Below are positions 12,267 to 20,488 of a stretch of DNA of 31,915 nucleotides, piece by piece. The stretch comes from Oscillospiraceae bacterium (GTDB lineage: Bacteria > Bacillota > Clostridia > Oscillospirales > Oscillospiraceae): assembly GCA_016290695.1 (NCBI GenBank), contig JAEEUX010000001.1, positions 1 through 31,915 of the forward strand. Direction: 5' to 3'. A program made the translations under genes and the position numbers. Positions within the stretch are counted from its first letter, which is position 1. Each line of letters opens with the position of its first letter. The notes under the pieces were generated by a model. The model was not told where the DNA came from and made no database searches. It saw only the letters and a program-made list of their open reading frames with translations.

Positions 12267-12545
12267 AGTTTAAAGGCAATGATGAGAGCAAGTAGCCAAA
12301 GCTTGCTTGCGCAGAGAGGCTCCGGTTTGGTGTAAGGAGCTGTTGCGGCTTTGGTGAATACATCTCGGAGCAGCCGCCCGAACCCGCCTTGTGCGGCAGT
12401 AGGAGCGGACGGGGTTCGCCCGTTACAGCGTTTGGGGAACCCGTTCCCCGTGAGGCGCGCGCCGCGAGGCCCGCGCGAACAGAGGTGGTACCGCGTAATT
12501 ACTACGCCCTCTTTCAGAGATTATCTGAGAGAGGGCGTTTTCTTG
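12267..12545 (+). ncRNA. T-box riboswitch with Tyr (UAC) specifier
   Basis: AGAGA box (12313-12317), GGTG distal loop, specifier GAA-TAC (codon 12359-12361), T-box AACAGAGGTGGTACCGCG (about 12478-12495), terminator; upstream of tyrS. Confidence 0.95.
12504..12545 (+). terminator. T-box attenuator terminator
   Basis: ACGCCCTCT-T-TCAGA / GATTA / TCTGA-G-AGAGGGCGT followed by TTTCTTGTT. Confidence 0.9.
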
Positions 12546-17110: not shown

Positions 17111-17473
17111 TTATGGCTTTTCTTTCGGCTTCTTGATAAGGGCAAAGATAAATGAGAAGAATATTGCTGAGCTCAGTCCACAGGCTGCGGCTGTCATTGA
17201 GCCGGAGAGTACGCCGAGCCAGCCCTTCTCGTCAACGGCTTTTTTAACGCCTTTGGCAAGAACATTGCCGAAGCCCGTGAGGGGAACGGAGGCGCCCGCG
17301 CCAGCCCAATCGAGAAAGGGAGCATATATGCCCACGGCGCTGAGAATTATGCCGGCGACTACGTAGGAAACGAGTATTCTTGCCGGAGTTAGCGCCGTTT
17401 TGTCGATGAGAATTTGCCCAATCGCGCAGAGAACACCACCCGCGACGAAAGCCTTAACGAAACCAAGCAGCAT
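17111..17473 (-). CDS. spoVAE: Stage V sporulation protein AE (SpoVAEb-type)
   Basis: AFVAGGVLCAIGQILIDKT.LTPARILV...GAGASVPLTGFG; abuts the spoVAD stop codon. Confidence 0.9.
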   Translation of the reverse strand: MLLGFVKAFVAGGVLCAIGQILIDKTALTPARILVSYVVAGIILSAVGIYAPFLDWAGAGASVPLTGFGNVLAKGVKKAVDEKGWLGVLSGSMTAAACGLSSAIFFSFIFALIKKPKEKP

Positions 17474-18499
17474 TTACAAAGCACCTCTTTCGGAAGAAAT
17501 AGCCACCGCGTGGCATATCCCGGGAATGCTTTCCTTTTGCGCGGAGCTTGTCGTGGACAAAAGAGCGCCTGTTGCGGCGAAAAGCACGTTTTTCCATCGC
17601 CCGGATCTCATTTCGCGCAGAATATATGCGCACAAAACGCTTGCGCTGCATCCGCAGCCGGAGCCGCCTGCGTGAACGTCCTGCTTTTCGCTTGAAAAGA
17701 GCAGCATTCCGCAGTCGATGCTTCGCGCGCTTATGTCCAGGCCGTCATCGCCGAAAAGGTCGATAAGCGCCCTGTGTCCTATTTTTCCGAGGTCACCTGT
17801 CACGATGAGGTCGTAATAGTCCGGATCTGTTGAAAAATCCTCAAAATGTGCCGAAAGAGTCTCATAAGCCGCCGGAGCCATTGCCGCTCCCATGTTGTTA
17901 ACGTCAGTAACGCCTGCGTCGCGGATGATACCCGTCGTAACACGCGGGATAAACGGACCCTCGCCGCCTTCGGAAAGAATGACACAGCCCGCAGCAGTCG
18001 CCGTCCACTGCGAGGACGGAGTGCGCTGACCGCCGTATTCAAGCGGGAAACGAAACTGCCGCTCTGCGGTGCAGAAATGCGACGAACAGACAGCTGCCGT
18101 TTTTGAGGCGTAACCGCCGTCGACAGCCATGGCGGCGAGCGTAAGCGACTCCGCCATAGTCGAGCAGGCACCGTATACCCCGAAGTAGGGGACGCGGCAC
18201 TCTCGAAACGCGAGAGCCGAGGCTATACACTGATTCAGAAGGTCGCCAGCGAAAACGTAATCTATTTTTGCCGCCTCCGTTTTCGCGGAAGCGCAGGCAA
18301 GCTCGAAAACCTTCTTCTGCATAAAGGTTTCGGCCTTTTCCCAGGTGTTTTCTCCGAAATACGAATCATCTGATACATAATCGAAGCAGCCGCGCAGCGG
18401 ACCTTCGTTCTCCTTTTTTCCCGCGACGCTCGCAAACCCGGCTATGACTGGCGGATTTGAAAACTGCACACTCTGAGCTCCGGCTTTTTTGACAGACAT
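17474..18499 (-). CDS. spoVAD: Stage V sporulation protein AD
   Basis: GKKENEGPL, AGDLLNQC, GVYGACST, HFCTAERQFRFPLEYGGQR, TGDLG, AGGSGCGCS; ATG 18499 chosen for its GGAG RBS (alternative starts 18505 and 18508). Confidence 0.95.
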   Translation of the reverse strand: MSVKKAGAQSVQFSNPPVIAGFASVAGKKENEGPLRGCFDYVSDDSYFGENTWEKAETFMQKKVFELACASAKTEAAKIDYVFAGDLLNQCIASALAFRECRVPYFGVYGACSTMAESLTLAAMAVDGGYASKTAAVCSSHFCTAERQFRFPLEYGGQRTPSSQWTATAAGCVILSEGGEGPFIPRVTTGIIRDAGVTDVNNMGAAMAPAAYETLSAHFEDFSTDPDYYDLIVTGDLGKIGHRALIDLFGDDGLDISARSIDCGMLLFSSEKQDVHAGGSGCGCSASVLCAYILREMRSGRWKNVLFAATGALLSTTSSAQKESIPGICHAVAISSERGAL

Positions 18500-18512
18500 G
18501 GGCATCACTCCG

Positions 18513-18549
18513 AATAAAATAGGGTCACCGCGAATGCGGCGACCCTATT
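18513..18549 (-). terminator. Intrinsic terminator after the DUF6062 gene
   Basis: Minus strand AATAGGGTCGCCGC / ATTC / GCGGTGACCCTATT then TTATT; the G-U wobble works only on the minus strand. Confidence 0.8.
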
Positions 18550-18581
18550 ATGTGCAGTTTCCGTGAAAATATTATCCAAGG

Positions 18582-19274
18582 CTATTTAAGAAACGCCATC
18601 GCGTCGTCAATAGAACTGCGGGCGCGCTCGGAAAGTGCAGCATCTGCGTTTCGATGGTCAAAGCTGAGGACGAATTCGTCGATTCCCGCGCGGATTTCGT
18701 CGAGACGAGCGCGTTCAAGCTCACAGAGCGCATCATAGAGCGAAGAGTATTTTTCAGCGTTCAGCTCGCGCTTGCCAGCACGAAGAATGCCGGCAGAATG
18801 TGTCACGCAAAAATAAGGCTGTTTCTTGAGCTTTGTGCGGAACGCTTCATCCGAGTCCCAAAGATAAGCGATGTTTGAATAATAACGCCGTTCTGTGTCT
18901 TTCACCTTAGAGCAGACGAAGCAGCTATCGGAAAGCTCACGCAGTTTTTCGCCGCCGTCCGCCTCTGCCGAAGAAGAAAAGAGCTTCTTTTTTTTCGCCG
19001 CCGGGATGGAATACAGTTCTTCCACGCTCATAAGATGACTCTGGATAACAAGGGCAAGCGGGAGCTTGTTTTTCATCCGGCGGAGCGCGGCTGAATGCTC
19101 GTGGCAAAAGCCCGCTTCATTCATCTTTATGCGGACATCCGGCTCCATCATGGCTGGGCCGAGAACGTATGAAAGCGTTGTTTCCTCAAGCGCGGCGAGC
19201 AGACGGCAGAGCGGACAGCCCTCGTAATGGTCGAAAGCTTCGTTTATCGGAATTGTAAAGATTTTTTCTGGCAA
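18582..19274 (-). CDS. DUF6062-family protein (230 aa)
   Basis: N-terminus (M)PEKIFTIPINEAFD...CPLC, MMEPDVR, GFCHEH, CFVC, FCVTH; TTG start at 19274 after GAGGACGGTG. Confidence 0.8.
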   Translation of the reverse strand: MPEKIFTIPINEAFDHYEGCPLCRLLAALEETTLSYVLGPAMMEPDVRIKMNEAGFCHEHSAALRRMKNKLPLALVIQSHLMSVEELYSIPAAKKKKLFSSSAEADGGEKLRELSDSCFVCSKVKDTERRYYSNIAYLWDSDEAFRTKLKKQPYFCVTHSAGILRAGKRELNAEKYSSLYDALCELERARLDEIRAGIDEFVLSFDHRNADAALSERARSSIDDAMAFLK

Positions 19275-19293
19275 ATGAAACACCGTCCTCAAT

Positions 19294-19562
19294 CTGAAGA
19301 AACCTATACGAACCCGGTTTTGACAGGCTGTTTTTCGCCAGTGCTGCATCAGACTCCTTGACTATACAACAAGTATTTTCTTCGGAGTCTTTCTTGCTAT
19401 GGCAAAAAACAGTTCTGTAAAAACTGCAAGGAACCTCACAGCTGGATGTTTTGCGGGGCTTTTGCCCCAACGAGGGAAGACGGGCTTTTGCACATCGAAC
19501 GAGGAGAGGCAAAAGACGCCGGAAAGAACAGCTGTGAGGCGGGTTCGTATAGGAGCCTTCAG
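19294..19562. repeat. Intergenic element with 23-bp imperfect terminal inverted repeats and nested internal stems
   Basis: CTGAAGAAACCTATACGAACCCG (19294-19316) against CGGGTTCGTATAGGAGCCTTCAG (19540-19562): 20/23 match with a perfect 14-bp core. Internal IRs: CCTCACAGCTG/CAGCTGTGAGG and AGACTCC/GGAGTCT. Confidence 0.8.
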
Positions 19563-19591
19563 CTTAATGTCTAACACTATCGAGTGTTTGC

Positions 19592-19620
19592 TTGAAATTG
19601 TGCATAACTGTTGTTATAAT
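19592..19620 (+). promoter_or_regulatory. Sigma-A promoter of the Ogg gene
   Basis: TTGAAA(19592-19597)-N17-TATAAT(19615-19620) with extended -10 TG. Confidence 0.75.
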
Positions 19621-19631
19621 TGTTATAGCTT

Positions 19632-19660
19632 ATTATAATCGGAGGCGAGGCTTTCTGCAA
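19632..19660 (-). promoter_or_regulatory. Sigma-A promoter pointing toward the structured element and DUF6062
   Basis: Minus strand TTGCAG-N17-TATAAT. Confidence 0.6.
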
Positions 19661-20488
19661 TACCTTGAAAAAAACTGTGAGACGGAATTTGCACGGCCTG
19701 AGGATTTTGATCTCGAAAAAATCTTTGAATGCGGACAATGCTTCCGCTGGAACGCGCAGGAGGACGGCTCGTATGTCGGCGTCGCGATGGGGAAAGTCCT
19801 TCGTATACGCGCTGAGAGAGCGCGCATTTGCATTTCCGCCTCAGACGAGGAATTTAAAAAGCTTTGGTACGATTATTTTGACCTGTCGCGCGATTATGCT
19901 AAAGCAAGAAGAGCCGTTTCTCTCGATGCATATACAAGCGCCGCAGCGGAATACGGGAAGGGCATACGCATCCTCAGACAGGATAGCTGGGAAGCACTTT
20001 GCTCGTTTGTTATTTCCGAGTGCAACAATATTTCCCGTATAAAGAAGATTATCGAAAGCCTGTGCGCTCTTTTCGGCGAGCAAATCGAGTTCGAAGGTGG
20101 GGAATACTACTCTTTTCCATCTGCGGAAAAGCTCGCTTCGCTCGAAGCGGAGGCACTCGCGCCGATCCGCTGCGGTTACCGTGCTCCTTACATAATCGAA
20201 GCTGCCCGCGCCGTTAGCTCAGGCACACTCTCACTTTCAGCGCTTGCGGCGATGAAATGCCCGGATGCCGTGCGTGAGCTGAAAAAGATTAACGGAATTG
20301 GTGATAAGGTCGCTAACTGCGTGGTTTTGTTCGGGCTGAACATATCGGATGCCTTTCCTCTCGACGTATGGATGAAAAAGGCGCTGAAAGCGCATTATCC
20401 CCCGGATTTTGACCCTTCGTGCTTCGGAGAAAATGCAGGTCTTGCCCAGCAGTATATTTTCTATTACGCGCGTTCCGGCAACGTTTAG
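19655..20488 (+). CDS. ogg: 8-oxoguanine DNA glycosylase/AP lyase (Ogg, HhH-GPD superfamily)
   Basis: FDLEKIFECGQCFRW, LRQDSWE, HhH motif KINGIGDKVANC (catalytic Lys), FPLDVW (catalytic Asp); the start is inferred at CTG 19655. Confidence 0.88.
   Translation: MQYLEKNCETEFARPEDFDLEKIFECGQCFRWNAQEDGSYVGVAMGKVLRIRAERARICISASDEEFKKLWYDYFDLSRDYAKARRAVSLDAYTSAAAEYGKGIRILRQDSWEALCSFVISECNNISRIKKIIESLCALFGEQIEFEGGEYYSFPSAEKLASLEAEALAPIRCGYRAPYIIEAARAVSSGTLSLSALAAMKCPDAVRELKKINGIGDKVANCVVLFGLNISDAFPLDVWMKKALKAHYPPDFDPSCFGENAGLAQQYIFYYARSGNV

Follow-up and report, generated by a model that had tools for sequence, protein, structure and literature searches.

Positions 19292-19564 of the window, by which we mean the whole 31,915-nt stretch of Oscillospiraceae DNA analyzed here, very probably represent an old, slightly decayed copy of a gene-less, MITE-like mobile repeat of ~277 bp that has 26-bp terminal inverted repeats and a TA on either side. 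The element (277 bp; 19292-19564 within the bounds of its 26-nt arms at 19291-19565) lies upstream of the DUF6062 gene, where the original prediction had described a multi-stem segment closed by inverted repeats and had offered three readings for it: a multibranch leader RNA, an invertible segment, or a non-autonomous miniature element. The observation is confirmed, and of the three readings only the miniature element holds, with dispersed copies in the same genome, empty sites in four congeners and a class-wide spread. The family is an uncatalogued, unusually constrained orphan MITE-like element, and the window copy itself is an ordinary one.

The DUF6062 gene (18582-19274, minus strand; Pfam PF19538, E = 1.3e-60) has a TTG start at 19274, and tblastn alignments to relatives begin at the residue of that start; a TTG start is also found in at least one congener, G005. 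The gene directly precedes the SpoVAD and SpoVAEB genes (window 17111-19274, minus strand), a placement that suggests a sporulation-linked role for the DUF6062 family. Its divergent neighbor is ogg (8-oxoguanine DNA glycosylase; 19655-20488, plus strand; Pfam OGG_N and HhH-GPD), for which the promoter scan listed two plus-strand promoters (19592-19620 and 19611-19639). The ogg start codon (19655-19657) appears to be CTG, 9 nt after GGAGG (19641-19645), with ATG at the homologous place in congeners; a contig from another study that spans the ogg start has no difference listed there. Between the DUF6062 and ogg starts lie 389 bp in the window versus 91-103 bp in four congeners (G001, G002, G003 and G005). 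Because the element makes up this difference, we conclude that it is an insertion. It is also absent from more distant relatives that have the DUF6062-ogg pair.

The minus-strand promoter named in the original prediction was found as a site at 19632-19660 (TTGCAG at 19660-19655, a 17-nt spacer and TATAAT at 19637-19632), but its -35 box has only three of six matches and the promoter scan did not list it. At least one congener (G005) has a minus-strand counterpart (TTGCAT-17-TATAAT), located by eye and overlapping the start codon of ogg. The window site is probably the DUF6062 promoter, separated from its gene by the insertion and giving a leader that would now be ~350 nt long. The DUF6062 ribosome binding site, GAGGA (19290-19286), adjoins the element. 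As the element sits between the conserved promoter and this ribosome binding site, it lies inside the DUF6062 leader and is probably co-transcribed with the gene. That geometry, with a closing stem that ends one base before GAGGA, is the part of the proposed leader RNA that stands, and it would suit a riboswitch or attenuator acting in cis on the DUF6062-spoVA operon. The tie to DUF6062 does not stand: the same intergenic region is empty in the four congeners and in more distant relatives, other copies lie beside unrelated genes in all four orientations with no constant position, and the element has no terminator-like site and no Rfam family match. We regard a cis-regulatory leader as extremely unlikely.

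In an ancestor of the species the element entered the short divergent promoter region between ogg and DUF6062-spoVAD-spoVAEB, landing between the DUF6062 promoter and ribosome binding site, and it has been retained since. An enzyme supplied in trans probably recognizes the two equivalent ends and may join them to TA. Two routes would suit: cut-and-paste transposition that duplicates 2 bp, or conservative recombination with TA as a 2-bp core. The local effect is most likely limited to lengthening the DUF6062 leader by a strongly folded stretch of 275 nt.

The insertion is old, since the left TA is now CA, the terminal arms carry three mismatches, the tip of domain B has lost two of seven pairs, and the same site is occupied in three studies. 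The degenerate CA occupies 19290-19291, the right flanking TA is retained at 19565-19566, and the left arm reads ATC in place of the AGC of its own sub-family. In contigs from three independent bovine-gut studies the element occupies this site in an unchanged orientation, with a few single-base differences between strains, two of which restore arm complementarity. No joint that skips or inverts the element and no filled/empty polymorphism within the species was seen in the contigs of the three studies, bearing in mind that contigs drop rare variants. A 26-nt inverted repeat bounding a segment beside two divergent promoters could point to a DNA segment inverted by a recombinase whose gene lies elsewhere. 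Against such an inverton, these contigs hold a single orientation without joints, no promoter was found in the segment, no recombinase gene was found among the neighbors of the locus, and the same arms bound ~277-bp units at hundreds of unrelated loci; we consider inversion improbable in the extreme.

The terminal inverted repeats form the closing stem, P1, with its 5' arm at 19291-19316 and its 3' arm at 19540-19565 (plus strand). The repeat search makes both arms 26 nt long and 85% complementary, and thereby lengthens the imperfect repeat described earlier, whose perfect 14-bp core, 3-bp mismatch and CTGAAG/CTTCAG segment were all recovered. Hairpin A, the left module (19317-19424, plus strand), runs from GGUUUUGAC through GUAAAAAC and ends in the tip AUAC-AACAA-GUAU. 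The unpaired spacer UGCAAGGAA (19425-19433, plus strand), which includes a conserved CUGC, lies between both modules. Stem P3 is the 11-bp perfect stem already noticed, which the repeat search returned with its 5' arm at 19434-19444 and its 3' arm at 19529-19539 (plus strand), the latter abutting the right terminal arm. It encloses the interior of domain B, the right module (19445-19528, plus strand), which, like hairpin A, was delimited by the consensus fold and covariation. Within domain B a U-run/A-run stem pairs 19459-19466 with 19508-19515, and the repeat search recovered this CTTTTGCC/GGCAAAAG pairing as well. The tip hairpin at 19479-19496 is decayed in the window copy, in which the two broken pairs lie; other copies retain GGGC-UGAC-GCCC with compensatory changes.

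Other small stems in the original prediction fared differently. The AGACTCC/GGAGTCT stem is present in the minimum-energy fold, and the TTGC/GCAA, CAGTT/AACTG and GGGGC-TTTT-GCCCC stems are local alternatives without family support, the family consensus pairing those bases otherwise (19328-19340 with 19400-19412, and 19459-19466 with 19508-19515). Folding gave -121.1 kcal/mol (z = -8.96) for the plus strand of the 277-nt stretch and -119.9 kcal/mol (z = -9.86) for the minus strand, thus a z of about -9 on each, and none of 200 shuffles folded as well. A promoter scan of the window copy found no promoter and no terminator-like site within the element.

The element is not alone in its own assembly (G000; 2.39 Mb in 311 contigs), which was searched by BLAST and nhmmer. 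Related units of ~277 bp were found dispersed in the genome and fall into three sub-families, accompanied by deletion derivatives and solo arms. Full copies are located at C104:3639-3915, C234:98-375, C125:3044-3320 and C159:1-277; contig ends cut further copies on C92, C135 and C184; one copy is internally deleted (C138:2920-3057); and solo right arms of the window's sub-type are present at C253:5505-5534 and C104:3914-3957. The terminal arms differ widely between sub-families and are complementary in all of them; the interiors are ~70% identical. At C104:3639-3957 (L003:1226-1544) a full copy of one sub-family abuts a solo right arm of the window's sub-family, the two being joined via a single TA.

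The same genome contains a second TA-flanked inverted-repeat element, here called family B, of ~175 bp with ends AGGCAACACCGCATAATTCC. Its 94 terminal-repeat hits in G000 are mostly at contig ends (C229, C148, C68, C215, C298, C5, C74 and others), and this location accounts for many assembly breaks. Two copies are present at L051 (G000:C142:4700-6400), mini-derivatives of ~55 bp (arm-loop-arm) occur, and no autonomous partner was seen in G000. Family B resembles the 277-bp element in its TA flanks and inverted repeats, in a hairpin tip, GGCAAUAC-ACAAA-GUAUUACC, that matches the tip of hairpin A, and in its first seven bases, AGGCAAC, which are the same as in one 277-nt sub-family. It differs in being a single rod-like hairpin and in being far more abundant in G000 than the 277-bp element.

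A consensus alignment of ten copies from three genomes, from which a covariance model (R1) was built, demonstrates that the fold is a property of the family. The consensus is Y-shaped, with P1 closing hairpin A, a short spacer, and P3 enclosing hairpin B. Across the ten copies, 95.5% of cells hold a pair, versus 77% after shuffling and 36-46% with slid partners; compensatory change was observed in 50 of 83 pairs, versus 11-19 in slid-partner controls. Covariation, which had been put forward as a check, extends to terminal and internal stems alike, with compensatory change in 20 of the 24 P1 pairs (ten copies) and at all four modelled pairs of P3. Sequence variation among copies tracks base pairing and not codons.

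Matches to R1 were found in 73 of 151 genomes (69 of 134 genera) of the same GTDB family, in 45 of 151 genomes (22 of 30 families) of the same order, and in 31 of 151 genomes of the same class. Many genomes carry at least 12 copies. Nearly all matches are full length and nearly all copies measure 272-283 nt; 174 distinct copies span 262-283 nt, with a mode of 277-278. A pattern scan across species-representative genomes gave 80 loci, and 70 of them pass the covariance model; the records of these 70 are titled as Oscillospiraceae, Clostridiales or Clostridia assembled from gut metagenomes, the hosts being people, goats, rabbits, yak, buffalo and roe deer. The remaining loci, about 10 of the 80 (Poribacteria, Flavobacterium and others), failed the model and were set aside. 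Several true copies (L194, L212, L247, L199, L229, L224 and L256) sit in bins labelled Collinsella aerofaciens, Bacteroidaceae, Agathobacter or Ruminococcus bicirculans, all from one 'cleanbin' project, so that wrong labels or contamination of the bins, or else a broader host range, would account for them. Plasmid and phage collections gave no blastn match, and five pattern matches in viral contigs, none passing the covariance model, were taken as chance.

Searches of Rfam, at gathering and permissive thresholds for the window and at a permissive one for 20 diverse copies, placed no known family on the element: nothing beyond noise was returned at E of 10 or less for the window copy, and nothing at E of 0.05 or less lay on the element in 20 diverse copies. 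The sole Rfam family in the window is a T-box leader at 12270-12514 (Rfam gathering score, 111.4 bits). Among the papers that could be searched, we found no description of such an element in Oscillospiraceae, Ruminococcaceae or Clostridia. In some sub-families an arm resembles a T arm plus acceptor strand. A tRNA- or tmRNA-like reading was nevertheless rejected, as ARAGORN called none of the 174 copies and only 10 of the 174 have a T-arm-like hairpin.

The copies behave as mobile DNA. The two outermost bases are T (81%) and A (85%) at the right end, and T (56%) and A (73%) at the left; ~80% of family termini are TA, with no conservation in the flanks beyond. Copies that abut have a single TA between them; because this dinucleotide is palindromic, a target duplication and terminal bases of the element both fit. 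Neighboring genes show no orientation bias (26 +-, 21 ++, 20 -- and 17 -+), and no neighbor gene family recurs, the largest cluster covering 10 of 180 loci. Nine terminal-repeat instances in G010 match the search pattern with zero mismatch, which points to recent amplification. Relics of 31-70 bp that retain both termini are present in G010 and G110, where unpaired terminal repeats are deletion relics. A preference for insertion beside other copies was considered and dismissed as weak, with 4 of 174 copies abutting another versus ~1 expected by chance. Small size, terminal inverted repeats, dispersed copies that are in some cases near-identical, and presence or absence at orthologous sites are marks of a MITE, and each of these was found here. 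We conclude that the copy profile fits a non-autonomous mobile element and neither a cis-regulatory RNA nor an RNA gene in single copy. Covariation of internal stems and a length that varies by only a few bases across the class are unusual for decaying transposon debris.

A search for the partner enzyme returned no cognate autonomous insertion sequence with the same ends: terminal-repeat searches in G000, G010, G110, G069 and G158 yielded only 277-bp units and relics. Partial model hits covering a single hairpin were considered as ends of autonomous elements, but every one inspected proved to be a normal copy truncated at a contig end. Ten transposase families were surveyed (DDE_3, DDE_Tnp_1, DDE_Tnp_1_2, IS30, rve, Y1, TnpB, IS110, IS256 and ISL3), and none was common to high-copy genomes, a result to be read with the frequent loss of insertion sequences from metagenome bins. 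DDE_3 (PF13358) was present in 8 of 151 related genomes, showed no association with the element, and was absent from G000, G010, G149 and G022; descent from IS630/Tc1-mariner was rejected because this transposase is missing from high-copy genomes. IS30 appealed as a partner for its 2-bp duplication and 26-bp repeats, and IS30-type transposases are found in 40 of 151 genomes. They are not enriched among carriers (17 of the 40 IS30-positive genomes carry the element, versus 73 of 151 overall) and their ends are unrelated, and IS30 was likewise rejected. G149, which is 98% complete in 30 contigs and has at least 12 copies, lacks all ten families, and in G010 the families tested are represented only by IS256 fragments and a single weak IS110 hit below threshold.

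Repeated open reading frames of G000 were also screened. The only clear transposase among them is IS1182-like (G000:C227:458-2113, L167; DUF772 and DDE_Tnp_1_6, 552 aa); two further contigs hold fragments of it. It was discarded because its ends are unrelated to either repeat family. The other multi-copy reading frames (surface-protein-like repeats, RtcB, flagellin and the like) are not transposases.

The same mobile element could instead be moved by conservative site-specific recombination, through a circular arm-TA-arm form and a serine-type recombinase acting at TA, and not by a DDE transposase. Serine-recombinase sites are laid out as a 2-bp palindromic core between inverted arms, a layout that the element fits; no DDE family is common to high-copy genomes, and occasional copies do abut across a single TA. 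Such abutting copies are rare, however, at the near-chance frequency given above, and the targets lack conservation beyond TA, which is atypical for site-specific recombinases. The serine-type recombinase is a candidate enzyme, and we judge this route unlikely.

Strand-wise folding energies and base skews, calculated for 75 clusters at 85% identity, revealed a mirror-image bias between the two halves. The minus strand of hairpin A folds better by a mean of 11 kcal/mol (72 of 75 clusters), and the plus strand of domain B by 8 kcal/mol (71 of 74 clusters). On the plus strand, pyrimidines prevail in A and purines in B, with a GC skew of -0.11 versus +0.13 and B above A in all 75 clusters. In 73 of 75 clusters the interior of the left half is closer to the reverse complement of the right half than to the right half in direct orientation. 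The element thus consists of two inverted modules of ~139 nt, each composed of a terminal repeat and a long covarying hairpin. The strand of each module that folds better and is purine-rich points outward from the center, with its 3' end at the nearer terminus. Since the genomic orientation of copies is random, a bias along the element's own axis requires an element-intrinsic process. The favored strand could be the one transferred in a DDE reaction, a 3' tail left by 5' resection, or an outward transcript.

This bias also bears on whether the fold is itself the functional product, that is, whether the family amounts to a structured non-coding RNA gene in many copies, or to a mobile element carried by RNA. 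The excess of compensatory change and of paired cells over controls, the nearly invariant length, the 8-11 kcal/mol advantage of one purine-rich strand in each half in more than 70 of 75 clusters, and the failure to find a transposase among the families tested are all consistent with an RNA product. The favored strand differs between the halves, however, and no single transcript holds both favored folds. No sigma-70 promoter was seen by eye in the family consensus, and the window copy contains neither promoter nor terminator. The random orientation relative to neighbors, the TA-flanked ends, the short relics with both termini, the solo arms and the negative ARAGORN result also argue against an RNA product of this kind, which we consider very unlikely.

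Returning to the mobile-repeat reading, we tentatively raise a more specific form of it, one that is possible though not probable: the element may be a distinct, Clostridia-wide, protein-less mobile class built only of two inverted ~139-nt end modules, whose folding appears to be maintained on the strand with its 3' end at the terminus. If true, movement would involve single-stranded 3' ends, or there would be outward transcripts, and the reading would also call for a transposase or recombinase outside the ten classical families tested, possibly a host enzyme.

What looks at this locus like a striking 'structured RNA' ahead of a sporulation-linked operon is an inserted element, which is a warning for annotators. 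Both the 277-bp family and its 175-bp relative break metagenome assemblies, and many of the 311 contigs of G000 end in the latter. The family is found in a large share of gut Clostridia with neither an Rfam entry nor a visible partner enzyme. It thus offers a clean case for how orphan MITEs move, and the mirror-image strand bias provides a concrete, testable clue.

Among known systems, the closest in behavior are the Correia/NEMIS elements of Neisseria. These are small, gene-less, dispersed and intergenic, have terminal inverted repeats of ~26 bp with TA ends, and are often co-transcribed with their neighbors as a long hairpin. To our knowledge their transposase is also still unknown. The likeness lies in the TA flanks, the 26-bp arms and the lack of a known transposase; however, the two share no sequence relation, belong to different phyla and differ in size (~100-155 bp versus 277 bp) and in structure, with one stem in Correia/NEMIS and two long covarying subterminal hairpins here, and no IHF site or outward promoter was identified in the 277-bp element. 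RUP of Streptococcus pneumoniae and other IS630-linked MITEs are miniature elements in Firmicutes that likewise have inverted repeats and TA flanks. RUP has the same ends as an IS630-family element, whereas here DDE_3 is found in no high-copy genome. ERIC/IRU, REP/BIME and REPIN sequences resemble the family as dispersed intergenic imperfect palindromes that fold in transcripts and have covarying arms. REPINs, however, go with a RAYT (Y1) gene and carry a GTAG tag, and neither G010 nor G149 has a Y1 gene; the ends of the 277-bp element consist instead of TA plus sub-family-specific arms.
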